A stretch of DNA of 64,000 nt, taken from assembly GCA_902789725.1 (NCBI GenBank), contig CADAPC010000028.1:309-64308 (forward strand), written 5' to 3'. This stretch comes from an uncultured Bacteroidales bacterium (GTDB taxonomy: Bacteria; Bacteroidota; Bacteroidia; Bacteroidales; Bacteroidaceae). Positions 15,318 to 28,020 of the stretch are shown here, one piece after another (the first letter of the stretch is position 1; each line of letters begins with the position of its first letter). The notes under the pieces are model-generated. The model was not told the DNA's origin. It ran no database searches and saw only the letters and a list, made by a program, of their open reading frames with translations. The translations under genes were made by a program, and so were the position numbers.

Positions 15318-15404
15318 CCAGCTTTTTGTCACCTCCTTGCTGATAACAATTGATTGAGTCATTAATGGCGTGCCCGCTGCAACCATGCAATCCATTTCAT
15401 TTTT

Positions 15405-15620
15405 ATTGCCTACGGCGAGCTAAAGGTTCGTGAGATTCGTGAGATTCGTGTTCGTTAAAAAAACTCCATGCTATTCTTTTTTCGACCACAGATTTCTCAG
15501 ATTGAACGGATTATTTTTCAGCCTCTCTCAGTCCTCCTCTCTTGTAGAATTGGCCGAGCTCTAAGTTCGTAAGATTCGTGTTATTGGCTACGCCGAGCTA
15601 AAGGTTCGTGGTCGAAAAAG
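15405..15620. repeat. cluster of three ATTGGC..GAGCT(A/C)TAAGTTCGTG-type direct repeats plus a 12-bp inverted repeat
   Basis: Copies lie at 15405-15450, 15549-15580 and 15583-15610; the first ends in tandem GAGATTCGT x2. The inverted pair is TTTTTCGACCAC (15478-15489) and GTGGTCGAAAAA (15608-15619). The core GAGCTAAAGGTTC also occurs at 4239-4251. Confidence 0.8.
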
Positions 15621-15668
15621 AAAAGACTACCCAACCCCTTGCCTAAGGCTTGGAAAAGATGGATGTGA

Positions 15669-15744
15669 GCCATTAATAATGCCTGTGCCTTGCCATTAAT
15701 AATGCCTGTGCCTTGCCATTAATAATGCCTGCGCCTTGCCATTA
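15669..15744. repeat. 23-bp tandem direct repeat, 3.3 copies
   Basis: GCCATTAATAATGCCTG(T/C)GCCTT at 15669-15691, 15692-15714 and 15715-15737, plus a partial copy at 15738-15744. Confidence 0.95.
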
Positions 15745-15755
15745 GCTTGATCCAG

Positions 15756-15833
15756 TTCATTAATGCGTCAAAACACGTTCATTAATGAAAATCGTCCAAT
15801 TCATTAATGAAAATCATCGAATTCATTAATGAA
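15756..15833. repeat. four phased copies of the palindrome TTCATTAATG(AA) at exactly 22-bp spacing (iteron/operator-like array)
   Basis: Copies start at 15756, 15778, 15800 and 15822. TTCATTAATGAA is its own reverse complement. A related TCATTAATGG lies at 15359-15368. Confidence 0.9.
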
Positions 15834-15851
15834 CGGTTTTTACCGAACAAG

Positions 15852-15938
15852 ATGTTTTATATAAACACGAATTGCCATGAATTGGCCTTGAATTTATCAT
15901 GAATATTTTATATAAATTATTTTTGTTTGCCTACTTAC
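15852..15938. repeat. copy B of the two-block dispersed intergenic repeat (copy A at 954-1019)
   Basis: ATGTTTTATATAAACACGAATTGCCATGAATT at 15852-15883 and ATTTTTGTTTGCCTACTTAC at 15919-15938. Confidence 0.7.
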
Positions 15939-16117
15939 TTAAATGGAGGATAAAGTTTGCGACAAGTCATTGTCTTGATTTTAGCTGTGGCTTTCAATCT
16001 CACAAATATTGGTGTCAATTTTGTGATTTTTAGTCTCAATTGAACTAAAAGGCAAAGAAAATTGCCGCATTTTGTCATATTTTTGTTTATTCTTGCACGT
16101 TTTACATGAAAAATTAG

Positions 16118-16125
16118 TATTTTTG
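16118..16125 (+). promoter_or_regulatory. candidate -7 box TATTTTTG for the HTH-hsd operon
   Basis: Matches TAnnTTTG, 20 nt upstream of the ATG at 16145, with TTTG-containing sequence about 30 nt further upstream. Confidence 0.35.
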
Positions 16126-16144
16126 CTGCATTAAATTTTGTATA

Positions 16145-16357
16145 ATGGCAAATAAAGACCTCAACAGATTGAAAGTGGTGCTTGTTGAACAGCACAAAAC
16201 AGCAAAATGGTTAGCAGAGCAAATGGAAAAAGACCCTGCAACTATTAGTAAGTGGTGTACCAACAAAGCACAGCCTTCATTAGAGACAATCAAAAAGATT
16301 GCAGAAATCCTACAGGTTAAAATGAGCGACCTAGTAAGCAATGAACAGCCTTTATAA
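16145..16357 (+). CDS. XRE-family helix-turn-helix transcriptional regulator (controller-like, heads the R-M operon)
   Basis: 70 aa. LKVVLVEQHKTAKWLAEQMEKDPATISKWCTNKAQPSLETIKKIAEILQV is a classic HTH_3/Cro-C1 pattern. The stop directly abuts the hsdM ORF. Confidence 0.8.
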   Translation: MANKDLNRLKVVLVEQHKTAKWLAEQMEKDPATISKWCTNKAQPSLETIKKIAEILQVKMSDLVSNEQPL

Positions 16358-16366
16358 TTGAAGCAA

Positions 16367-18223
16367 ATGACTGAAAAGATAAATATTCGTAAACTGGAAG
16401 CTGACCTTTGGGAGTCGGCAGACCTGCTTCGTGCAGGAAGTAAACTCACATCGAGCCAATACTGTATGCCGGTATTGGCATTGCTGTTTCTAAGGTACGC
16501 ATATAGTCGCTTCAAGATGGTTGAAGCTGAATTGCTGAAGAATCGTCCAAGTCGTGGTGGTCGCGTAATGCCTGTTGAACCAAGTGACTTTGCTGCTAAA
16601 AGTGCGCTCTACCTTCCTCGTGAGGCTCAGTTTGACTATCTGGTAAATCTGTCGGATGACCAACCTTTGGGCGAAGCTGTCAATCGCGCTATGACTCTGG
16701 TCGAAGAACAAAGCGAACAGTTGACAGGTATTCTGCCTAAATCATACACTATGTTCAGCGATGAACTGTTGCGTGAACTCCTTCGTATCTTTAATAACAA
16801 GACACTCGACGAAATCGGTGGCGATGTTATAGGTCGTATTTATGAGTACTTCCTCAGCAAGTTTGCTAAGGCAGTAGCATCAGACGATGGTGTGTTCTTC
16901 ACTCCTAAGTCTTTGGTAAAGATGCTCGTAAATGTACTGGAGCCAGAACAGGGCGTAATGCTTGATCCTGCTTGTGGTTCGGGAGGTATGTTCGTTCAAA
17001 CTGGCGACTTTGTGAATGCAGGTGGTATGAATGCCAATACACAGATGACCTTCTACGGTCAGGAAAAGGTGGAATACAATGCCCAACTCTGTCTGATGAA
17101 CATGGCAGTACACGGTTTGAATGGCAGGATTGTCTCTGGTGATGAGGCTAACTCCTTCTATCATGATGCACACAACCTTGCAGGAAAGTGTGACTACGTG
17201 ATGGCGAATCCTCCATTCAATGTTGATAAAGTAAAGTCGGAATCAGCATCTGCTGCTGGTCGTCTGCCATTCGGCTTGCCTGGTGTTAATGCAAAGACAA
17301 AAGAGATTGGTAATGCCAACTATCTCTGGATTTCATATTTCTATGCCTACCTCAACGACCATGGTCGTGCAGGATTTGTTATGGCATCATCGGCGACGGA
17401 TAGTGCCAACAAGGATCGTGACATCCGTGAAAAGCTTGTTCTTACAGGCGATGTGGATGTTATGGTGAGTGTGGGCAACAACTTCTTCTACACCCTCTCG
17501 CTCCCTTGCTCGCTGTGGTTCTTTGACAAGGCAAAGCGTTTAGAGAATAAGAATCGTGTACTTTTCATTGATGCCCGCAACTATTATACCGTTGTTGACC
17601 GTACTCTTAATGAATGGTCAGAATGGCAATTGAAAAACTTGCAAGCTATTGTCCATCTGTATCGTGGAGAACAGAACAAGTATAAGGCGCTTATCAATGA
17701 GTATTGGAATGCACTTAGCGAACATGCCGAGAGGCATGACAATGCAGCATGGCAAGATCGTGACATGACTTTCGAGAAAGCCCTCGGTGTACTCAACTCC
17801 GAGGAGGCGATGTACAAAAAGTATATCAAAGACCAACAAGATGCCCTCAAAAAGACAAAAGGGAAAAAGGAGAAGGATGAACTGAAGGCTGTCATTACCT
17901 CCAATGAGGCGGAACTTGCTGTTACTCTTGAAGCCAAGGATATGGTAAACGAAGCCATTTGGCTCACTTCAAAGTTCGGTCTTGAAGGCGAATATCAGGA
18001 TGTGCTTGGTCTTTGCAAGATTGCCACTATTCAGGAGATAGAGGAAAAGAACTACAGTCTTACCCCCGGTGCATACGTGGGTGTTGCCGAAGTCGAGGAC
18101 GATGGCGTTGACTTCCATGAGCGTATGAATGAAATCCATACAGAACTCGCCTCTCTCAACAAAGAAGCCAATGTGCTAATGAGTGAGATCATGAAGGAAT
18201 GGGAAACTCTTAACACGAAGTAA
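16367..18223 (+). CDS. hsdM: type I restriction-modification system methyltransferase subunit M
   Basis: HsdM N-terminal pattern LWESADLLRAGSKLTSSQY, SAM motif DPACGSGGMF and catalytic NPPFN. The track ORF starts at TTG 16358; the first ATG is at 16367. There is a long K/E-rich C-terminal helical extension. Confidence 0.9.
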   Translation: MTEKINIRKLEADLWESADLLRAGSKLTSSQYCMPVLALLFLRYAYSRFKMVEAELLKNRPSRGGRVMPVEPSDFAAKSALYLPREAQFDYLVNLSDDQPLGEAVNRAMTLVEEQSEQLTGILPKSYTMFSDELLRELLRIFNNKTLDEIGGDVIGRIYEYFLSKFAKAVASDDGVFFTPKSLVKMLVNVLEPEQGVMLDPACGSGGMFVQTGDFVNAGGMNANTQMTFYGQEKVEYNAQLCLMNMAVHGLNGRIVSGDEANSFYHDAHNLAGKCDYVMANPPFNVDKVKSESASAAGRLPFGLPGVNAKTKEIGNANYLWISYFYAYLNDHGRAGFVMASSATDSANKDRDIREKLVLTGDVDVMVSVGNNFFYTLSLPCSLWFFDKAKRLENKNRVLFIDARNYYTVVDRTLNEWSEWQLKNLQAIVHLYRGEQNKYKALINEYWNALSEHAERHDNAAWQDRDMTFEKALGVLNSEEAMYKKYIKDQQDALKKTKGKKEKDELKAVITSNEAELAVTLEAKDMVNEAIWLTSKFGLEGEYQDVLGLCKIATIQEIEEKNYSLTPGAYVGVAEVEDDGVDFHERMNEIHTELASLNKEANVLMSEIMKEWETLNTK

Positions 18224-18226
18224 ATC

Positions 18227-18778
18227 ATGGCAAACGAGATAAAACCAATAGGGTCAACCGATATTTCAGCAATGGGTGCAGTAGTTGGAATTTTGATGAC
18301 TGACCTCCGCCAAATCATTGACGAAGCGCGAATCCATGTGGCATCTACAGCCAACTATGAGCTTACCATGATGTACTGGCATATTGGCGAGCGAATTAAC
18401 CGCGACGTGCTTGGAAATGAACGAGCTGCATACGGAAAACAAATTATCGCAACAGTGTCACGACAATTACAAGCATGGTATGGTAGCAAGGGCTTTGAGG
18501 AGAGAACAATTAGGAGAATGGTACAATTTGCGCAAGAATTCCCTGATTGGCAAATAGTGTCACCGCTGGTGTCAAAATTGTCTTGGACTCATTTCCTGAC
18601 TATTATGACACTGAAAGACCCACTTCAACGAGAGTTTTATCTTACAATGGCATCAAACGAGAGGTGGAGTAAACGTACACTTCAATCAAAGATTGATGGA
18701 ATGCTATACGAGCGTACTGCATTGTCGTCAGTCGCAAAAGCTAAATGGGGAAATGGAAGAAAGGAGGATGAGGTATGA
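18227..18778 (+). CDS. DUF1016 (YhcG-like) N-terminal-domain-only protein; the PD-(D/E)xK nuclease half is absent
   Basis: ELTMMYWHIGERINRDVLGNERAAYGKQII...LSWTHFLTIMTLKDPLQREFYL...ERWSKRTLQSKIDGMLYERTALS matches my recollection of the DUF1016 N-domain. The protein ends at 183 aa, and its last 4 nt overlap the hsdS ATG. Confidence 0.65.
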   Translation: MANEIKPIGSTDISAMGAVVGILMTDLRQIIDEARIHVASTANYELTMMYWHIGERINRDVLGNERAAYGKQIIATVSRQLQAWYGSKGFEERTIRRMVQFAQEFPDWQIVSPLVSKLSWTHFLTIMTLKDPLQREFYLTMASNERWSKRTLQSKIDGMLYERTALSSVAKAKWGNGRKEDEV

Positions 18779-19911
18779 GTGAGTGGAAGAAAGTGAAGTT
18801 GGGAGATATTCTTCAAGTAAAGAAAGGTGAATACATCACAAAGAAAGAAGCGCATGATGGTATTTATCCTGTTATTCTTGGAGGAAAAGAACCTGCTTAC
18901 TATATTGACAAATACAATCATACTGGGAAGGCTATTGTCATATCAAGAAGTGGTGCTTCTGCTGGATATGTATCATTTTGGAATGAGCCATTATTTGTAA
19001 CCGATGGATTCCTAATTGAACCCAAAGACACGCTAACATACGAATTCCTTTATTATGCATTGAAAAGCAAACAATCCCTTCTACATAATGCACAAAAAGG
19101 AGCAGCCATTCCGCATGTCACGCCATCTCTTATTGGAGATATAGACTTTTTTTTGCCAAGTGCAGATACCCAGCACCGCATCGCCACCATCCTCTCTCGC
19201 TACGACTCATTGATAGAGAACTATCAGAAGCAGATAAAGCTATTGGAGGAAGCAGCGCAGAGGCTCTATAAAGAATGGTTCGTTGACCTCCATTTCCCCG
19301 GACACGAAAACACAAAGATTGTCGATGGTGTGCCTGAGGGGTGGGAGAAGAAGAAAGTCAACTCCATCATTGAATTACAAAGCGGTTTTGCTTTCCAGAG
19401 CTCATCCTTTGACGAAAGTGGTGCATACAAGATTGTTACAATCAAGAACGTAAAAGATGGTGCCTTTGACTGTGATAATGTTAGCAGAATTTCTGCAATT
19501 CCGAAAAAGATGCCTAAACATTGTGCACTTACAGATGGTGACATTCTCCTTTCGCTTACAGGTAACGTCGGTAGAATTTGTATCGTAAATGGTAAGGACT
19601 ACTTGCTAAACCAGCGAGTTGCCAAACTGAAAACGGATTTCAAAGCATTTACTTACTGTCTTTTCAGAAGCAGAGAAATGTTTATTGAAGTGAATAATCT
19701 AGCAAATGGTGTTGCCCAACAAAACGTAAGCCCTATAAGAATTGGAGAAATGAAAATACTTCTGCCAAACAAAGAAGTTCTGCATAAATTTGAATCAATA
19801 ACTTCCAAATCGATTGTTGGCATAATCTCCTTTCAATCTCAAATCCGCCTCCTCACCGAAGCTCGTGACCGCTTGCTTCCCAAACTGATGAGCGGCGAGA
19901 TAGAAATATAG
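18775..19911 (+). CDS. hsdS: type I restriction-modification system specificity subunit S
   Basis: Two variable target-recognition halves are separated by the conserved IATILSRYDSLIENYQKQIKLLEEAAQRLYKEWFVDLHFPG. It ends with the distal conserved QIRLLTEARDRLLPKLMSGEIEI. Confidence 0.9.
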   Translation: MSEWKKVKLGDILQVKKGEYITKKEAHDGIYPVILGGKEPAYYIDKYNHTGKAIVISRSGASAGYVSFWNEPLFVTDGFLIEPKDTLTYEFLYYALKSKQSLLHNAQKGAAIPHVTPSLIGDIDFFLPSADTQHRIATILSRYDSLIENYQKQIKLLEEAAQRLYKEWFVDLHFPGHENTKIVDGVPEGWEKKKVNSIIELQSGFAFQSSSFDESGAYKIVTIKNVKDGAFDCDNVSRISAIPKKMPKHCALTDGDILLSLTGNVGRICIVNGKDYLLNQRVAKLKTDFKAFTYCLFRSREMFIEVNNLANGVAQQNVSPIRIGEMKILLPNKEVLHKFESITSKSIVGIISFQSQIRLLTEARDRLLPKLMSGEIEI

Positions 19912-19938
19912 AATAATAAACAAATTAAATAAGGTAAC

Positions 19939-21063
19939 ATGAAAGAGTATTTAAGAATTCAGAACTTTGGACCGATTGTAGATATTGAATTAGACGACAT
20001 CGCTCCTCTAACCATTCTTATAGGAGAATCTGGTAGTGGTAAGAGTACCGTTATGAAAGTACTCTCAATGTTCAGATGGATATATAAGCGTATCGTTTTA
20101 CGTTCCTATGTTCGGCAAGCAAAAATCAAAAAAACAGGCATCGGTATTCAGATGAAAACCTTATTAAAGACCTCACAACTGAGTGAGTACATAAAGTCAG
20201 ACTCTGAAATCGTCTATTGTAGAGGCGACTATTCGATAGTTTATTCAAATGGCAAATTGAATGCTCAGGCCGACATTCCAGCTGATGACCTCAGTCTGGA
20301 AAAAATATGCTATATCTCGGATAAGCGTTCAATGATTCCTGATTTCTTGGAAAATAAAATAGAAAAAAAGAATGCAAACTATCATTTGCAGGATACCTTA
20401 GAAAATTTCCTACTTGCGGCTGACTCTATCCGCCAATTACCCTTGGATTATCTCAACGTGGAGTTGAAAATTGAAAAAGGGACCCAAGGTGACAAATATA
20501 TGATAAAAGGAACTAATGGCACCCCATGCTCCATCCAATTGCGCAACTCATCATCAGGTATGCAGACGGTAACGCCATTAAGTTTAATAGTTGAGTACTA
20601 TGCAAAGAAATTCGACTCGCAGAAGTCTATGAACTCTTCATTGTTTAGTTACCTGCAAGACAATGACAAACTAGACGTTTTTAATACTGCAAAGAATATT
20701 GGTGAAATACAATCTAAAAATGTACATTTGTTTATTGAAGAACCAGAGTTAAGCCTTTATCCTGAGAGCCAAAGAAGCCTGATAGACTTCTTGGTTAACA
20801 GATGCTTTATGAATGAGCATCCATATAATATGACTCTTATGATGGCTACGCATAGTCCATATATAGTAAATTACCTGAATGTTCTTATTCGTAGAACCAA
20901 GGAGCAGGGCCTTTCATTTATTCGCCCTGATGACGTTAATGTATATGAGATTTTTGAAGGAAATGCAGGACCTTTGAAGACTCTCAACGATAGACCCATT
21001 ATCGATACTCGATCCATGTCTGACCCAATAACGGAAATGTACACTGAATTTAACAGTTTATAG
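19939..21063 (+). CDS. ABC/SMC-like (AAA_15/AAA_21-type) ATPase, candidate defence-system component
   Basis: N-terminal RIQNFGPI...LTILIGESGSGKST (Walker A), ABC-signature-like NSSSGMQ, Walker B HLFIEEPELSLYPESQ and H-loop MATHSPYIV. A hand count of 20041-20140 gives 36 G+C per 100 nt, against 53 per 100 in hsdR at 22001-22100. Confidence 0.8.
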   Translation: MKEYLRIQNFGPIVDIELDDIAPLTILIGESGSGKSTVMKVLSMFRWIYKRIVLRSYVRQAKIKKTGIGIQMKTLLKTSQLSEYIKSDSEIVYCRGDYSIVYSNGKLNAQADIPADDLSLEKICYISDKRSMIPDFLENKIEKKNANYHLQDTLENFLLAADSIRQLPLDYLNVELKIEKGTQGDKYMIKGTNGTPCSIQLRNSSSGMQTVTPLSLIVEYYAKKFDSQKSMNSSLFSYLQDNDKLDVFNTAKNIGEIQSKNVHLFIEEPELSLYPESQRSLIDFLVNRCFMNEHPYNMTLMMATHSPYIVNYLNVLIRRTKEQGLSFIRPDDVNVYEIFEGNAGPLKTLNDRPIIDTRSMSDPITEMYTEFNSL

Positions 21064-21065
21064 GT

Positions 21066-21731
21066 ATGGAACAGATTCTAAAGAGTGAAATAATTGCAAT
21101 ATTAAATAAAATCCAAAGAGGTTCTGCTCCAAAACTGACGGACAATGACATTGTTCCTAATTTTGTTGTAATTTCAGACCATAAGTTTGACCTCGTCGAT
21201 TCTAAGGATGGTTCTCCTGTTAGAGATTTTGAAACTGGTACAGCACATTACATTAATGGTAACGAAGGTGATACATATAATCTGAAGATTATCTGTTACG
21301 ATGATTTCCTTCATCAATTTACCTACGATGATGGAATAGGTCATGCACATGTCAGCAGGTTAAAAAATGGTGTAAGGGTTTCAGATTTTCTTGTCTATGA
21401 AGAGGGTGAATCGAAAGCTCTGTTCATTGTTCACGAATTGTCTGATGAAAATTCCAGCAAAAAAATTAGGGTAGCAAGAAAACAATTGTCAGATACTTTG
21501 AATCAACTATATCAGTCTGAAGTGATAGGTAGGTTTATAGATGCCTTTAAAAACAAAAAGTGTTACCTGTCTGCAAAGGATAGCCGAAAAATCGTAGAAA
21601 CAGAGGGGATGGCAGATGGTTTTAATGAAATATACAGAGTTTTGCCAGAGCCGATACAATTCAATTGGGGCCAAATCGAAACACATGGTTTTTCTGCTTT
21701 TGAGACAAGTTATGTAAATCTTCCCAAATAG
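21066..21731 (+). CDS. hypothetical 221-aa protein, partner of the upstream ATPase; no family recognised
   Basis: The ORF starts 2 nt after the ATPase stop and ends 9 nt before the hsdR ATG. It has no signal peptide or TM helix. I see no Toprim EG..TE/DxD, HNH or HEPN motif. A weak PD-(D/E)xK-like stretch is VSDFLVYEEGESKALFIVHELSD. Confidence 0.6.
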   Translation: MEQILKSEIIAILNKIQRGSAPKLTDNDIVPNFVVISDHKFDLVDSKDGSPVRDFETGTAHYINGNEGDTYNLKIICYDDFLHQFTYDDGIGHAHVSRLKNGVRVSDFLVYEEGESKALFIVHELSDENSSKKIRVARKQLSDTLNQLYQSEVIGRFIDAFKNKKCYLSAKDSRKIVETEGMADGFNEIYRVLPEPIQFNWGQIETHGFSAFETSYVNLPK

Positions 21732-21740
21732 GTTTTTAAT

Positions 21741-24700
21741 ATGGCAAAGGACTATAGCGAAGACCAATTAATACAGAAATCGACAGCCGAACTCTTGGAA
21801 AAAGAGCTTGGATGGAAGTCTGTGTATGCTTTCGACAATGAGGTACTTGGTGAACAAGGCACGCTGGGACGCAAGAATCAGAGCGAGGTCGTGCTGACAC
21901 GGCATCTTCGCTTGGCCTTGAAACGTCTGAATCCATGGATGACCGACAAGCAGTTGACAGAAGCCATCGAGCGCATGACCAGCTACATGAGCTCGCAGAC
22001 GCTGATGCAGATTAACGAGGAGAAGTATGGTTACGTGCGTGATGGTGTGCCTGTCACTCGCCTGAAGCCTAATGGCGAGACTGAACTGGTACGTGCCAAG
22101 GTTATGGACTTTGCCAATGTGGATAACAACGAGTTTATTGCAGTCAGAGAACTTTGGATAAAGGGGCCTATCCACAAACGCAGAGCAGATGTGGTGTGCT
22201 TCGTGAATGGTCTTCCGCTTATCTTCATCGAACTGAAGAATCATGACCAGGACATACAGAATGCTTATACCGACAACTATCGCGACTACCTTGACACCAT
22301 ACCGCATTTATTCCACCACAATGCCATGATTATGCTGAGCAATGGCATGGAAAGCCGTGTGGGTACAGTGGGTGCCAAGTGGGAGTTCTTCCATGAATGG
22401 AAACGACTGACGGAGTTGGATCACGGAAATATCGAATTGCCAACGATGCTGCGTGGTATCTGTAAGAAAGAGAACCTGCTGGATTTGCTTGAAAACTTCA
22501 TCCTCTTCGACCATAGCGGAGGTTCAACCGTCAAGATTCTGGCACGCAACCACCAGTACCTGGGTGTAAACCAAGCAGTGGAGATGTATCGCCATCGTGA
22601 GGAAATGAAAGGTAAACTGGGCGTGTTTTGGCACACCCAGGGCTCTGGTAAGAGCTATTCGATGGTATTCCTGGCTCAGAAGATCAGACGTAAGTTTGAA
22701 GGCTCGCCAACGATTGTGGTGCTGACCGATCGCGATGAGTTGAACAAACAGATAAGTGACACCTTCGAGAATTGCGGACTGTTGGGAGGATTGAAAGCCA
22801 AGCAGTTCATTGCACATAGCGGTGATGATCTTCGGCAGAAGCTGACCGGCAATCCTTCGTTCATCTTTTCGCTGATACAGAAGTTCAACAAGGCAGACGC
22901 AGAACCTATCTATCCTGATCATGACATCATCGTGATGAGTGACGAAGCACACCGTACACAGAATGGTGTTTTTGCCGACAACCTCATGCACATGTTGCCA
23001 ACAGCAAATCGTATTGGTTTCACCGGTACGCCTTTGTTGCGAGACGATAATATCACAGCTCGTACCTTCGGGCAGTATGTCTCTGTGTATGACTTCAAAC
23101 GTGCCGTAGAGGATAAGGCAACGGTTCCTCTCTACTATGAGAATCGCGGTGAGAAACTTCAAGAGCTGAAGAATCCGGAAATCAATGCAGAGATTGCCGC
23201 CAGATTGGATGAAGAGGACTTGGATCCTTCACAGCAAGCTAAACTAGAGCGTGAGTTTGCACAGGAAGTACATTTGTTGACCGCCGAGAAACGACTGCGA
23301 GTGGTGGCACAGGACTTTGTGCGTCACTATAGCGACTTGTGGACAAGCGGTAAGGCCATGATGGTAAGCTTCAACAAGGTAACTTGCGTCCGCATGTATA
23401 ACTACGTGCAGGAGTATTGGCAAAAAGAGATAAAGGCTCTACGCAAACGTATTGAGCAAGATCCATGGCAACAGGAAGTTCAGGAGATGAAGCGTAAGCT
23501 GCAATGGATGGAAGAAACGGAAATGGCGGTGGTGGTATCGCAGGAGCAGAACGAGATACAGACATTCAAGAAATGGCGACTTGACATCACTCCACATCGA
23601 GAGAAGATGGAGAAAAGGGAGTTGGACAAGGAGTTCAAGGATGCCGACAGCAAACTGCGGGTGGTCTTTGTCTGCGCCATGTGGCTGACAGGCTTTGACG
23701 TGAAAACGCTGTCATGCCTTTATATTGACAAACCCATGAAGGCGCATACCTTGATGCAGACCATTGCCCGTGCTAACCGTGTGGCAGAAGGTAAGTCGAA
23801 CGGTCTTGTGATTGACTATATAGGTATTGTGAAAGCACTCCGTCAAGCGCTAGCTGACTATACGGCTAATCCTGACGGCGGAGACGGCGGCAACGACCCG
23901 ACAGTCAACAAGGAAGAACTGATAAAGAATGTTTGGGAAATTATAGCGACAGCAGAAGCATTCCTGCATGATAAAGGTTTTGAATTGCAGGAGCTCATTG
24001 AGGCCATGTCGTTTGAGAAGCTATCCCTTCTGAAGAAGGCAGCGAACCTGCTTTGTGATACTATCGAAACCCGTAAGTCGTTCTGCACATTTGCGACTAC
24101 CTTGCTCAAACTTTGGAAATATCTCGATCGTGAAGATATAACTGAAGACATGCGCAAAAAGAAAGATGCTCTGGAAGCCATCTACAAGGAATTGCAGAAA
24201 AAGCGTAAGCACGCGGACATCACAGACTTGAGTGTAGCAATCAATGATATTGTCAATGAGTATCTTGAAATAGATTCCAATGCTATGATGGTTGCTGATG
24301 GTGATGGACGTAAATTTGACATCAGCGGTATCGACTTCGATTTATTGCGAAGAGAGTTTGCCAAGCGTGAAGACAAGAATCTCGTACTAAGAGACATTCA
24401 AGACTTACTTCTGGAACGTCTGGCTCGACTATTAGCAGAGAATCCATCCAGAATTAACTTTTACGAAAAGTATCAGGAGATTATTCAAGCGTACAACCAG
24501 GAGCAGAATCGCGCAACGATAGAGAAGACCTTCGAGGAGTTGATGCATCTGTCTCAATCTCTCAGCGAAGAAGAGAAGCGTTATGTACGAGAAGGATTCA
24601 AGAGTGATGAAGAGCTATCGCTCTATGACCTCCTATTGAAAGACAATTTGTCAAAGACAGAAGTCAAAAAGCTGAAGGATGTAGCCATAGAGTTGCTTGC

Positions 24701-24890
24701 CAAAATAAAGGAACAGTTGGCTGGTATGGATCATCCATTTGACAAGCCAACGACTCGTGCTACTCTTATCATTACCATACGTGATGTTTTGTGGCAAGAA
24801 CTTCCAGAGAGTTATAGCGAAGAAAGTATAAACTACTACCGAGATACCATTTACAACTATGTTAGTCAAAGATATGGTGGTGTGGCATAA
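21741..24890 (+). CDS. hsdR: type I restriction endonuclease subunit R
   Basis: N-terminal nuclease motif RADVVCFVNGLPLIFIELKN. Helicase motifs are I HTQGSGKS, II VMSDEAHRTQ, III GFTGTPL and VI QTIARANR. 1049 aa. Confidence 0.92.
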   Translation: MAKDYSEDQLIQKSTAELLEKELGWKSVYAFDNEVLGEQGTLGRKNQSEVVLTRHLRLALKRLNPWMTDKQLTEAIERMTSYMSSQTLMQINEEKYGYVRDGVPVTRLKPNGETELVRAKVMDFANVDNNEFIAVRELWIKGPIHKRRADVVCFVNGLPLIFIELKNHDQDIQNAYTDNYRDYLDTIPHLFHHNAMIMLSNGMESRVGTVGAKWEFFHEWKRLTELDHGNIELPTMLRGICKKENLLDLLENFILFDHSGGSTVKILARNHQYLGVNQAVEMYRHREEMKGKLGVFWHTQGSGKSYSMVFLAQKIRRKFEGSPTIVVLTDRDELNKQISDTFENCGLLGGLKAKQFIAHSGDDLRQKLTGNPSFIFSLIQKFNKADAEPIYPDHDIIVMSDEAHRTQNGVFADNLMHMLPTANRIGFTGTPLLRDDNITARTFGQYVSVYDFKRAVEDKATVPLYYENRGEKLQELKNPEINAEIAARLDEEDLDPSQQAKLEREFAQEVHLLTAEKRLRVVAQDFVRHYSDLWTSGKAMMVSFNKVTCVRMYNYVQEYWQKEIKALRKRIEQDPWQQEVQEMKRKLQWMEETEMAVVVSQEQNEIQTFKKWRLDITPHREKMEKRELDKEFKDADSKLRVVFVCAMWLTGFDVKTLSCLYIDKPMKAHTLMQTIARANRVAEGKSNGLVIDYIGIVKALRQALADYTANPDGGDGGNDPTVNKEELIKNVWEIIATAEAFLHDKGFELQELIEAMSFEKLSLLKKAANLLCDTIETRKSFCTFATTLLKLWKYLDREDITEDMRKKKDALEAIYKELQKKRKHADITDLSVAINDIVNEYLEIDSNAMMVADGDGRKFDISGIDFDLLRREFAKREDKNLVLRDIQDLLLERLARLLAENPSRINFYEKYQEIIQAYNQEQNRATIEKTFEELMHLSQSLSEEEKRYVREGFKSDEELSLYDLLLKDNLSKTEVKKLKDVAIELLAKIKEQLAGMDHPFDKPTTRATLIITIRDVLWQELPESYSEESINYYRDTIYNYVSQRYGGVA

Positions 24891-24908: not shown

Positions 24909-25061
24909 ATGAATCGACTCGTTATCATAGGCAATGGCTTTGATATGGCACATGGTCTTAAAACCAGTTATATGGAAAAAACTTGCAGAGTAGATGTTTT
25001 CAGGGTTAGCGAGTTCAGGGTAGGAGCACGATACCTTCCTTTTTCATGCCATCAATCTTGA
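24909..25061 (+). pseudogene. truncated AbiH-like abortive-infection gene remnant (only about 22 N-terminal codons retained)
   Basis: The 50-codon ORF begins MNRLVIIGNGFDMAHGLKTSYME. This matches the characteristic AbiH-family N-terminus (..IIGNGFDLAHGL.T.Y..F) as I remember it. The rest is unrelated sequence running antisense into the next gene. Confidence 0.5.
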
Positions 25062-27993
25062 TGACAATGGGGGCGGAGAAGCGTACATGACGCACATGCT
25101 CCGTCTCTTGAACCGCTGGGAGAGCGTTGAGAAGCGCCTGGTTGTAGATGCCGTCGCCCATGAAATCGTTGACCGTCAAGTAACCCACGCCCATGGAGGT
25201 GAGGTTCTGGAAAAAGTGGGTGCCCTGGCTCGGTTCCACACGGAAATTGCGCAAACCAGCCTCGACAATGACTTTGGCTGCAGAGATATTGGGCCACTTG
25301 ACGGGAATGCCTAACCACGAATCGCTGGATCCCCAACGTCCGGGACCGATGAGCACATAATTTTGTGCACGCTGAAGGAAGCCACGATTGATGCGCTCTA
25401 TCTCTTCGGCTATGGAAGGATTGTTGGCGGCAGTAAAATTGTCGGTCTTGACATAGACCACATCATATACATCGTTAACAATCCCATGTCCGATGGCATT
25501 GTGGCTGCGGAGCAAGCAAGCTTCGTCGGCAATGGAAGTCAGATCCTCATCCAACTGCATTTGGTTGTCAACCATTGGACGAATCTGCAAGAGATAGAAC
25601 TCGCCACTGCGATTGTCTTTCAGGTTAATGGCGAATTCAATCTCGACAGGACGAGCCATTTCTTTCTGTCCATAGTAAAGGACTTTCTGCAACAGTTCTG
25701 GCAAAGGTATCACCCCATTTTGCAACACTCCAGAGAAGGAGATAATCTTCCGATTCTTCCCTTCATAATATCCATCATAGATGCATTGGTCATAGGGGTC
25801 GTAAGTGGAGACTATCCATTTCAGAGAGCCATCGTGATCAGCGTCGCGCACTGTGACCTTCTTCAGGTTGAAGGCGTCATCCACTTGGAATGACAACAAG
25901 TTCTCTTTTTCTTCAACATCCTTAGCATCCACATCTAACGCATAAAACTTGGTTTGGGTTTCTCTCAACGCAATTTCCATCTCGCTCGTTTGCAAAACCT
26001 TGTCGGGATGATAAGGACAGACACGAAGGCATAGTCCTCCATCCACTATATACTTACCCAGGCCAAGCGCCAACTCCACTATTCCCTCTTCAGCCTTTTC
26101 GTCACCAATGGGATAATAGTTGATACTGCGCCCCACACCTGAGATGGTAGGATAAAACCCGCTGGCATATTTCTGTCCTACCACTTCTTGCAAGATAACC
26201 GCCATTTTCTCTTGGTCTATCACGTTGGACGTAGCCGCCATATAGTCTTTAGAGGCTCGATAGAAGACGCTGGCATACACACTCTTGATGGCATTGGACA
26301 GCATTTCGAGCCGCACATATTTATCCTCGGCTCGAGGAATCATATACGTGGAATAGATGCCCGCAAAAGGTTGGTAATGGCTATCCTCCAGCAGAGAAGA
26401 AGAGCGAATAGCCACAGGGCCATTGACTACATCCATAAAAGACATGAGGTCGTCGGCAAGATTTTCAGGAAGACGGCCATGCAGGAAATGCTGAAGAATC
26501 TCCTCGTCAGGAATATCGGAAAGTGCCACTTCGTAGAGTCCATTGGTTTCCATAAACTGGTCGAAGATGTCGGTACACAGAACCACCGTTTTGGGAATCT
26601 GAACACTCGCATTGGCAAATTCATTCAGGTCGGAACGCCGTTTGATGATGTTGTCAAGAAACGCCAGTCCCCTACCCTTTCCGCCCAACGACCCTTCGCC
26701 AATGCGGGCAAATTGGCTGTAGCTGTCGAAACGGTCGCGATGGAAAACAGCCACCACACCACGGTTCTTCATACGCCGATAGCTGACAATGGCATCAAAG
26801 ATGTACTGACGGTGAGCGTTCACATCGCTCTCCACCTTCCATGTGATTTTTTTCAGAAATTCAGCCACTGGGAAGATGGCACGCGAAGCGAGCCAGCGTG
26901 ACACATTGTTATGGCGCAAATGATAGCCGAGCGAATCGGCTGGCAAGGTGAAGATATTGTCTTGCAGTTCCTTCAGATTGTGAACCCGAGCCACTTCCTG
27001 CATCGTTTCAGGATTACGGAAGATGAAATCGCCAAAACCGAAATGCTTGGTGAGCAAGTCTTTCAAGTCTTGATTGAGTTTTTTGGAATTTTTATCGATG
27101 AAAGCAGCTTTGCAGCGGTCGGCATATTCTTTTTTGTCCGTCTCGCTGGAATCGAGCACCAAAGGGACGTACTCATCCACTTCACGAATGGCACTCAGCA
27201 ATTTATATCCAGCCAACTCGTCTTTCACCTTACTGTCGGCCAACATGGGGAAACGGCAGTCGCTGATGACACCTAAAACATTATCACTAAATTGAGAATA
27301 GAGTGCCCAAGCTTCTTCGTAAGAACGAGCCAAAACAATTTTGGAGCGTCCACGCATGCGCAACATTTCCAACTGAGAATTCAGTGCCTCGGTCGCAAAT
27401 TCAAGACTCTGCTGAAGAACGAATTGATAGAGATTGGGCAAGAGGGAGGAATAGAAACGGATGCTGTCCTCGACCACAAGAATCATCTGCACGCCAGCAG
27501 CAAGGTCATTGGCCAAGTTCATCTTGTCCTCTATGAGTTTGATGATGGAGAGCAGCAATTCTGTATTTCCCAACCAACAGAACACATACTCGAAAGCGCT
27601 GAGGTCTTCATTCTCCATACGGCGAGTGATGCCATGAGAGAAAGGAGTGAGAACAACGATGGGCAATGATGGAAATTCACCCTTGATGCCCCGCGCTATG
27701 CCAAACACGTCATTGTTATCGGTTCCGGGCATACAGATGACAAGATCGAAGGAATTACGCTCAATCAATCCAGCGGCTTCTTCCTGAGAGGCTGCACGGA
27801 AAAAGCGAGGAGGATAACGAAGTCCCAACTTGGCGTATTCATCAAAAATTTTCTCATCCACCCGCCCATCATCTTCCAGCATGAATGCATCGTAGGGGTT
27901 GGCTATGATGAGCACATTGAACACACGCCGCTGCATCAAATCCACAAACTTCGTTTCGCGTAACGTAGGGTATCTATTGTCAGTATTAGTCAT
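25015..27993 (-). CDS. receiver-domain protein fused to a PEP/pyruvate-binding (PPDK N-terminal ATP-grasp-like) domain
   Basis: The first region is CheY-like but degenerate (VLIIANPYDAF...DLVICMPG...PIVVLTP). A second canonical-looking receiver follows (ILVVEDS...VISDCRFP...PLVLDSS), then GEGSLGGKGRGLAFL and a long ATP-grasp-like region. No phosphohistidine swivel or TIM-barrel motif is evident. The track start at 27999 is TTG; the ATG is at 27993. Confidence 0.7.
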   Translation of the reverse strand: MTNTDNRYPTLRETKFVDLMQRRVFNVLIIANPYDAFMLEDDGRVDEKIFDEYAKLGLRYPPRFFRAASQEEAAGLIERNSFDLVICMPGTDNNDVFGIARGIKGEFPSLPIVVLTPFSHGITRRMENEDLSAFEYVFCWLGNTELLLSIIKLIEDKMNLANDLAAGVQMILVVEDSIRFYSSLLPNLYQFVLQQSLEFATEALNSQLEMLRMRGRSKIVLARSYEEAWALYSQFSDNVLGVISDCRFPMLADSKVKDELAGYKLLSAIREVDEYVPLVLDSSETDKKEYADRCKAAFIDKNSKKLNQDLKDLLTKHFGFGDFIFRNPETMQEVARVHNLKELQDNIFTLPADSLGYHLRHNNVSRWLASRAIFPVAEFLKKITWKVESDVNAHRQYIFDAIVSYRRMKNRGVVAVFHRDRFDSYSQFARIGEGSLGGKGRGLAFLDNIIKRRSDLNEFANASVQIPKTVVLCTDIFDQFMETNGLYEVALSDIPDEEILQHFLHGRLPENLADDLMSFMDVVNGPVAIRSSSLLEDSHYQPFAGIYSTYMIPRAEDKYVRLEMLSNAIKSVYASVFYRASKDYMAATSNVIDQEKMAVILQEVVGQKYASGFYPTISGVGRSINYYPIGDEKAEEGIVELALGLGKYIVDGGLCLRVCPYHPDKVLQTSEMEIALRETQTKFYALDVDAKDVEEKENLLSFQVDDAFNLKKVTVRDADHDGSLKWIVSTYDPYDQCIYDGYYEGKNRKIISFSGVLQNGVIPLPELLQKVLYYGQKEMARPVEIEFAINLKDNRSGEFYLLQIRPMVDNQMQLDEDLTSIADEACLLRSHNAIGHGIVNDVYDVVYVKTDNFTAANNPSIAEEIERINRGFLQRAQNYVLIGPGRWGSSDSWLGIPVKWPNISAAKVIVEAGLRNFRVEPSQGTHFFQNLTSMGVGYLTVNDFMGDGIYNQALLNALPAVQETEHVRHVRFSAPIVIKIDGMKKEGIVLLP

Positions 27994-28020
27994 AAACAAC
28001 TCTCAGTGATTAGTTGGATG

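Follow-up and report, generated by a model that had tools for sequence, protein, structure and literature searches.

Introduction

An operon combining an OLD-ABC ATPase with a "novel REase" (restriction endonuclease) was reportedly described by Krishnan et al. in 2020. In the prr locus of E. coli, prrC sits between type I restriction-modification (R-M) genes and encodes a single polypeptide with a fused anticodon-nuclease domain. Here we analyze a stretch of 64,000 nucleotides (nt) from an uncultured Bacteroidales bacterium (contig CADAPC010000028.1; hereafter the window, the full stretch, with coordinates counted from its first letter) in which two genes at 19939-21731, encoding an OLD-family ABC ATPase and a protein of 221 amino acids (aa), lie between hsdS and hsdR of a type I R-M operon. 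We find that this pair is probably an autonomous two-gene anti-phage module of the PDC-M29/WonAB type, carried as cargo at the hsdS-hsdR junction and read through from the hsd promoter.

WonAB and PD-T4-4 have been classed together as ABC-ATPase sensors paired with PD-(D/E)xK nucleases (two papers, including PMC12137116). Protection by WonAB, which is encoded on a Vibrio prophage, needs both genes, the ATPase motifs and nuclease residue K71, and this lysine, part of an ELK motif, is needed for toxicity as well as for protection (Adams et al., 2025, PMC12137116). During WonAB action genomic DNA stays intact while translation stops; the authors suggest an rRNA or tRNA target, and the triggering cue arises after phage DNA replication has started (Adams et al., 2025, PMC12137116). 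PD-T4-4 protects against T4, and its two proteins form higher-order complexes (Vassallo et al., 2022). For the PDC candidate systems of PADLOC-DB v2, a defense role was inferred from their embedding in BREX, DISARM and type I R-M loci; PDC-M29 corresponds to cassette CAS_00123, with a count of 110 (Payne et al., bioRxiv 10.1101/2024.01.29.577857). We found no mention of PDC-M29 by name in the literature searched.

Results

The ATPase is a member of the PDC-M29 family

All four ABC-type motifs named in a preliminary description of this DNA, which had been made from the sequence alone, were confirmed in the ATPase: Walker A GESGSGKST begins at residue 29 (K35), the signature SSGMQ at residue 205 (S205-Q209), Walker B LFIEEPE at residue 264 (E267/E268) and the H-loop ATHSP at residue 303 (H305). 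Pfam matched AAA_15 (1.6e-19), AAA_21 (2.6e-14) and AAA_23 and, in line with that description, revealed no fused effector domain. The top PADLOC match by far was PDC-M29A (8.6e-45, residues 4-319), followed by much weaker generic matches to AriA (2.4e-20), HEC-01A (3e-16), PD-T4-4_A (4.6e-13), PtuA (~1e-11) and NsnB. Over its whole length, the ATPase also shares 31% identity (E 6e-51) with the OLD-ABC ATPase of Capnocytophaga sp. H4358 from the supplement of Adams et al.; two published OLD-ABC ATPases, the Capnocytophaga protein included, themselves scored 2.9e-169 and 2.1e-36 on PDC-M29A.

The 221-aa protein shares its core with WonB/novel-REase nucleases

Direct searches with the 221-aa protein returned no Pfam or NCBIfam match, only E values of 0.15 or worse against PHROGs and of 0.5 or worse against PDB sequences (where a 56-sequence profile also found nothing useful), and no tblastn match in the plasmid and phage collections. 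The earlier statement that this protein matches no recognized family thus stands for Pfam, NCBIfam and PDB, but not for the profiles of PDC-M29B and the WonB/novel-REase nucleases. PADLOC gave a weak match to PDC-M29B (8.7e-4, residues 120-178), a model that was also matched by 21 of 56 relatives of the protein (best 3.4e-10) and by 7 of 10 published WonB/novel-REase nucleases (best 1.5e-64). When the profile of the 221-aa family was compared by hhalign with that of the WonB/novel-REase nucleases, the two were homologous across 80 core columns spanning D79, D107, E124 and Q140 (93.3%, E 2.7e-7); starting from single sequences gave 82.5% and 55.6%. The D, C, E-L-K and Q positions are invariant in the 10-sequence WonB/novel-REase alignment.

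The 221-aa protein belongs to a small family: 5.8 billion proteins yielded 163 clusters at 90% identity (E 0.001 or better), and a set of 1.84 billion yielded 99 representatives at 50% identity. The best 120 of the 163 clusters are 69-100% identical to the protein and nearly all full length, with the open reading frame (ORF) intact. In an alignment of 56 diverse relatives (19-44% identity), F41, D45, N64, D107 and F186 are invariant, and Y78-(E/D)79, E124, Q140 and C166 are near-invariant, with E124 and Q140 each present in 55 of 56. The protein divides into an N-terminal extension (residues 1-77) and a core (residues 78-221) that holds D79, D107, E124-L-S126, K133, Q140 and C166.

An AlphaFold2 model built from the 56-relative alignment reached a pLDDT (predicted local distance difference test) of 90.2 and a pTM (predicted template modeling score) of 0.88; an earlier run, for which the alignment was shallow (identities of 69% or more), gave a pLDDT of 49.6 and was not interpreted. 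In the good model, helix 78-83 is followed by strand 108-112 with D107 just before it, strand 119-126 with E124-L-S126, helix 131-148 with K133 and Q140, and strand 163-170. The predicted order of elements, alpha-beta-beta-beta-alpha-beta, is the canonical PD-(D/E)xK arrangement. Many of the top-ranked, non-significant Foldseek matches in the PDB were PD-(D/E)xK nucleases (R.BspD6I small subunit, FokI, BamHI, McrC, PaqCI and DdmD), and those in BFVD included UL24, HamA and PD-(D/E)xK phage proteins. As a qualitative clue, these rankings of the model hint at a restriction-fold nuclease. What had been described as a weak PD-(D/E)xK-like hairpin is a real catalytic core, judging by the invariance of D107 and the near-invariance of E124.

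Based on the ATPase matches (6e-51 to the Capnocytophaga protein, and PDC-M29A), the hhalign probability of 93.3% and the shared PDC-M29B matches, PDC-M29, the OLD-ABC ATPase + novel REase operon and WonAB are one family, of which the window pair is a divergent member. As in WonAB and the novel-REase operons, an ATPase gene precedes a small nuclease gene at tight spacing (2 nt), the ATPase is of the OLD-type ABC class with FIEEPE and THSP motifs, and the nuclease core carries the motifs (C/S)D...hhhELx...AxxQLxxT...C/hhhS. There are also clear differences: WonB is a 16.1 kDa protein, whereas the window effector is about 60-80 residues longer at its N terminus, has serine in place of the ExK lysine and has a lysine seven residues before the conserved glutamine; and the pair resides in a Bacteroidales hsd operon rather than on a Vibrio prophage. 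The proposals that this module is undescribed and that its effector fold had not yet been linked to defense fail because profile searches place the pair in a named system, an outcome that the preliminary description had itself listed as refuting: the pair falls in the PADLOC candidate PDC-M29, the family has an experimentally validated member in WonAB, and the fold is already linked to defense through WonAB and the novel REase.

The catalytic lysine has probably moved within the family

Where WonB has ELK, the 221-aa protein has E124-L-S126 and, instead, a lysine at position 133, at the start of the helix that follows strand beta-3. This substitution raised the question of whether the protein is a non-catalytic partner, such as an adaptor or a sensor, or is decaying after loss of the ExK lysine. 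Replacement by S126 of a lysine essential in WonB would fit that view, as would the lack of a significant structural match. The pattern across the family speaks against it. K126 is present in 9 of 56 relatives, none of which has K133; in the remaining 47, residue 126 is S, T, C or A, and K133 is present in every one (47/47). On a rough neighbor-joining tree, the K126/K133 state underwent at least three coupled switches. The covariation therefore points to an active-site lysine that has migrated rather than to a dead enzyme. Given also the constancy of D107, E124 and Q140 and the intact ORF throughout the family clusters (163 at E 0.001 or better, the best 120 being 69-100% identical), we regard a degenerate or non-catalytic 221-aa protein as extremely improbable.

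Other ATPase-nuclease systems fit the pair less well than PDC-M29

PD-T4-4 and PDC-M47 share the architecture of an ABC ATPase with a PD-(D/E)xK nuclease. However, the window ATPase matches PD-T4-4_A at just 4.6e-13, with the best stretch confined to the C-terminal motifs; PD-T4-4_B was matched by a single one of the 56 relatives of the 221-aa protein (0.0048), and three PDC-M47B models were matched by 3, 1 and 1 of them. By these profile scores, PD-T4-4/PDC-M47 would be a sister architecture and not the same family as the window pair.

PARIS, Gabija, Septu, HEC-01/02/04 and AbiL/RloAB likewise couple sensing by an OLD/ABC-family ATPase to a nuclease, which is either fused to it or a protein of its own. 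The effectors belong to the Toprim (AriB, GajA, HEC-01B/04), HNH (PtuB) and NERD (HEC-02B) types, and the RloB/AbiLii effector is, according to the preliminary description, DUF4276. In Pfam and PADLOC, neither the 221-aa protein nor any of its 56 relatives matched a Toprim, HNH, NERD or DUF4276 effector model, which bears out the earlier observation that the protein has no Toprim, DUF4276 or HNH effector. We rejected PARIS because AriB/Toprim (DUF4435) matches are missing from the protein and its relatives and because the AriA match of the ATPase is generic and weaker than that to PDC-M29A. Septu was rejected for lack of a PtuB/HNH match (a true Septu pair in related operons scores 1e-226 and 1e-69), AbiL/RloAB for lack of a DUF4276/Toprim-like match in Pfam or PADLOC, and HEC-02 on account of an effector type that does not fit. 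PrrC resembles the pair in its location among type I R-M genes and as a suicide nuclease built on an ABC-type ATPase. It differs from the window arrangement, which comprises two proteins and a REase-fold effector and mostly occurs without hsd. The PrrC label was rejected on these grounds: the two proteins are separate, the ATPase carries no fused effector and near-obligate embedding in R-M loci is absent.

The pair is co-directional with a complete type I R-M operon

Gene calls and Pfam agree with the preliminary description that two intact ORFs sit inside an otherwise complete type I R-M operon; HsdM, HsdS and HsdR each have complete Pfam domain sets. The features of the operon are as follows.

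16145-16357, + strand: XRE-type helix-turn-helix (HTH) gene, 70 aa, at the operon head (Pfam HTH_3, 1.6e-10)
16358-18223, + strand: hsdM, 621 aa (Pfam HsdM_N and N6_Mtase)
18227-18778, + strand: ORF with DUF1016_N only, 183 aa, between hsdM and hsdS
18775-19911, + strand: hsdS, 378 aa, with two target-recognition domains (Pfam Methylase_S, 2.8e-36); left border of the cargo slot
19912-19938, + strand: 27-nt spacer from the hsdS stop to the ATPase start
19939-21063, + strand: OLD-family ABC ATPase gene, 374 aa (WonA-like, PDC-M29A); predicted sensor/activator
21064-21065, + strand: 2-nt spacer between the ATPase gene and the 221-aa gene
21066-21731, + strand: gene for the 221-aa divergent WonB/novel-REase-type PD-(D/E)xK protein; predicted nuclease effector
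21732-21740, + strand: 9-nt junction from the stop of the 221-aa gene to the hsdR ATG
21741-24890, + strand: hsdR, 1049 aa, complete (Pfam HSDR_N, SWI2_SNF2, ResIII, T1R_D3-like and T1RH-like_C); right border of the cargo slot

The spacers of 27, 2 and 9 nt are exactly as first described. A terminator scan found no terminator-like site on the + strand between hsdS and hsdR. A sigma-70 promoter scan scored no better than shuffled sequence, the sigma-70 consensus being uninformative for Bacteroidetes; one TAnnTTTG motif occurs inside hsdS, at 19785, and lacks a -33 TTTG. Upstream of the operon, between an ABC-transporter gene and the HTH gene, 15318-16144 is AT-rich (31-38% G+C), has no + strand ORF of at least 60 aa and holds three Bacteroides-type -7 motifs (TAnnTTTG, at 15918, 16078 and 16118). 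This region is likely the operon promoter region together with the left edge of the R-M island. The HTH protein, which is 96-97% identical in related operons (L029, L030, L036, L038 and L043), is a possible controller protein. There are no tRNA genes anywhere in the window.

Whole-gene G+C is 37.1% for the ATPase gene and 35.6% for the 221-aa gene, compared to 40.3% for hsdS, 45.3% for hsdM and 46.5% for both hsdR and the window. The cassette is thus AT-rich, as the preliminary description had it, but the contrast is smaller than 100-nt samples had suggested, and hsdS is intermediate.

Two further ORFs of the island are worth recording. The 183-aa ORF has a DUF1016 N-terminal domain (3.2e-46), matches PADLOC PDC-S02 (6e-64), keeps just the first ~48 residues of a PD-(D/E)xK nuclease domain and overlaps the hsdS start by 4 nt. 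It looks like a 3'-truncated embedded YhcG, a reading suggested by related operons whose hsdM-hsdS interval is big enough for a full-length gene and by L004, which has a complete YhcG (DUF1016_N + YhcG_C, 349 aa); the YhcG-type ORF is shorter still in L028 and L035. Just 3' of hsdR, a 50-aa ORF (~24909-25061, + strand) overlaps the end of a convergent PPDK_N-like gene (25015-27999, minus strand) and has a weak precomputed AbiH (PF14253) match in the identical contigs L008 and L009. Possibly, this ORF is what is left of a further abortive-infection gene that marked the 3' border of the island.

The hsdS-hsdR junction of related operons is a cargo slot

To place the cassette in its operon family, we surveyed 80 metagenomic loci (L026-L105) whose HsdR is 75-99% identical to that of the window. 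In operons with 75-79% identical HsdR, hsdS abuts hsdR at a distance of 18-30 nt, which supports the earlier suggestion that the pair was inserted into an hsd operon. The junction is empty (18-30 nt) in five loci (L061, L064, L075, L079 and L105), and the hsdS-hsdR distance reaches ~4.2 kb among the 80. ORFs were called in 27 large-gap loci, where all cargo ORFs except one (L093) are co-directional with hsd. The cargo consists of McrB/McrC-like pairs in six loci, Septu PtuA/PtuB in three (PtuA 1e-226, PtuB 1e-69), AbiU/AIPR in three and HEC-04 in two, with PDC-S31/Schlafen-AlbA_2 and Fic/PDC-S72 also represented. The defense context proposed for the pair is therefore well founded, as the same slot holds McrBC, Septu, AbiU, HEC-04 and Fic in sister operons. 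Other cargo is unannotated, for example a 309-aa family in L056, L088 and L101 that has no Pfam or PADLOC match; such cargos may be further defense candidates.

Within this survey, the ATPase and 221-aa genes were found together in a single locus of the 80 (L035; 98% and 87% identity). There, the pair adjoins an hsdS that is unrelated (36% identity), and after the pair come a duplicate of the hsdR 5' end (codons 1-76) and an McrBC pair. The 27-nt spacer travels with the cassette, being near-identical in L035 and similar in a copy that stands alone (L019). From the varied cargo and the empty junctions in sister operons, the window cassette is one of many interchangeable defense cargos, which are probably exchanged by recombination through the conserved hsdS 3' and hsdR 5' ends.

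Two other traces of rearrangement were seen in these operons. A duplicated hsdR 5' fragment (codons 1-76, 84-90% identity) is present in L026, L027, L035 (4171-4398), L037, L039 and L053, ~3.6 kb upstream of the complete hsdR, and a shorter one (codons 1-31, ~1.2 kb) in L103; in the three of these loci with ORFs called (L026, L027 and L035), the cargo between fragment and complete hsdR is an McrBC-like pair. The duplication resembles a scar left when cargo was inserted or exchanged through recombination at the start of hsdR. HsdS is 34-60% identical in operons (L026-L054) whose HsdR and HsdM are 93-99% identical to those of the window, which indicates that, within a single hsd lineage, specificity subunits or target-recognition domains are often replaced.

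The pair usually occurs without hsd genes

Wherever upstream DNA is visible, the gene directly preceding that of the 221-aa homolog encodes the ATPase, down to ~24% identity; the two genes travel together. Seven GTDB genome loci carry the pair, including those of Butyricimonas, Muribaculaceae, Porphyromonas gulae, Parabacteroides distasonis and Phocaeicola. In the Bacteroidales genome loci the ATPase is more conserved (82-90% identity) than the nuclease (67-76%). No hsd genes were detected in the available flanks of these seven loci (two contigs are short), nor in those of the metagenome contexts L012-L015, L017-L021 and L024. The neighbors sampled at four genome loci (L001, L004, L005 and L006) are mostly housekeeping/metabolic or surface-protein genes; in the metagenome contexts, they include an ISL3 transposase (one copy), caspase-like and CHAT genes (L019-L021) and housekeeping genes (one copy).

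One solo copy retains traces of an R-M past. In P. gulae DSM 15663 (L005; NZ_KB899148.1, 6750-8730), both ORFs are intact and are flanked by a relic hsdS 3' end (z = 21) and a relic hsdR 5' end (z = 7), with no intact hsd gene within 8 kb. Either the cassette outlived its R-M host operon or it moved with its flanks. Clear hsd scars around solo copies were found at this locus only; L012 and L019 showed marginal similarity in the 5' untranslated region, and the rest showed none.

These contexts bear directly on whether the pair guards the R-M enzyme, that is, whether it is silenced by HsdMSR or senses Ocr/ArdA and fires when restriction is blocked, in the manner of PrrC or PARIS. The pair occupies the slot that the preliminary description credited to prrC, at a spacing that forces co-transcription, and PARIS senses Ocr through a related OLD-family ATPase. 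Moreover, OLD-ABC + nuclease dyads, PD-(D/E)xK ones among them, have been proposed as backup suicidal effectors of BREX (2026 survey, PMC12839542), so the idea of a backup suicide effector of this kind in R-M-like systems is already published for BREX. The relics of hsdS 3' and hsdR 5' ends around the P. gulae copy, together with the second, different hsd operon in L035, argue that the hsd slot is a recurrent home. However, the pair lacks hsd in its available flanks at the seven genome loci and in the ten metagenome contexts listed above, the neighbors sampled at four genome loci are mostly housekeeping or surface-protein genes and those in L019-L021 include caspase-like and CHAT genes, and in P. 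gulae both ORFs have survived the decay of hsd. Of the 80 sister operons, a single one has the pair, the others holding unrelated autonomous systems or nothing. PrrC, by contrast, is reported almost exclusively embedded in R-M loci. Inducible constructs that express WonAB or PD-T4-4 in isolation are reported to be protective, for WonAB in E. coli as well. PrrC-like guarding of the R-M enzyme by the pair is therefore unsupported, and we consider silencing by HsdMSR or sensing of Ocr/ArdA unlikely.

It can also be imagined that, in this Bacteroidales lineage, the WonAB-like pair was recruited as a true second layer of the type I R-M enzyme. It would be transcribed together with hsdMSR and would respond to anti-restriction proteins or to a loss of HsdR activity, and the effector subfamily with the relocated lysine and the N-terminal extension would be the adaptation that ties it to this trigger. 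Tight co-transcription and recurrence in hsd slots leave a slim chance of real coupling of this sort.

Finally, a small, mobile, AT-rich two-gene unit that lies beside insertion sequence elements (the ISL3 transposase) and at many unrelated sites might be an addiction cassette akin to a toxin-antitoxin (TA) system, with a nuclease toxin and an ATPase antidote stabilizing itself or the R-M island. Pfam indeed labels AAA_21 as "putative AbiEii toxin, Type IV TA system," and over-produced WonB is toxic alone. This toxicity nevertheless appears only with active WonA, and a simple sequestration model has been excluded for WonAB (Adams et al., 2025, PMC12137116). The alternative cargos of the slot are, in addition, defense systems and not classical TA pairs. 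On balance, an addiction function seems highly unlikely.

Discussion

Together, these data argue that the genes between hsdS and hsdR are a PDC-M29/WonAB-type module that happens to travel in an hsd slot. By homology with WonAB, the ATPase would form an ATP-dependent dimer that holds the small nuclease on its C-terminal extensions, about residues 320-374 in the window protein. Once a cue of phage infection is sensed, ATP binding and hydrolysis would license the nuclease; its cut, most probably in an RNA of the translation apparatus and not in the chromosome, would arrest the cell and abort the infection. We thus infer from WonAB that the window pair forms such a complex, responds to such a trigger, attacks RNA and aborts infection.

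Several points weigh against this interpretation. Effector membership is a matter of profile-level evidence, because the 221-aa protein itself scores just 8.7e-4 on PDC-M29B and falls short of significance against a novel REase in pairwise BLASTP (E 0.096). None of the Foldseek matches of the good model in PDB and BFVD reached E 1e-3. The 221-aa protein lacks the canonical ExK lysine, which WonB cannot do without and which belongs to an ELK invariant in the 10 published sequences, and compensation by K133 is deduced from covariation alone. The family sequences that we compared are MacSyFinder hits from the supplement of Adams et al. (2025, PMC12137116) and not V. cholerae WonA (AWB73975.1) and WonB (AWB73976.1) themselves, and PD-T4-4 showed no DNA cleavage in vitro (Vassallo et al., 2022). 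A WonAB-type function would accordingly be ascribed to the Bacteroidales subfamily on homology of sequence.

The value of this placement lies in joining what had been separate names, namely PDC-M29, OLD-ABC + novel REase and WonAB; it opens no new defense class. With it, the PDC-M29/WonAB family comes to include a Bacteroidales subfamily that is abundant in gut and rumen and that existing models hardly pick up. The relocation of the lysine from ExK to ExS...K makes a clear prediction about the active site that can be put to the test. The hsdS-hsdR junction of this one hsd family, in turn, is a modular slot that accepts McrBC, Septu, AbiU, HEC-04, Fic and the window pair, and it should be useful for mining more cargo.

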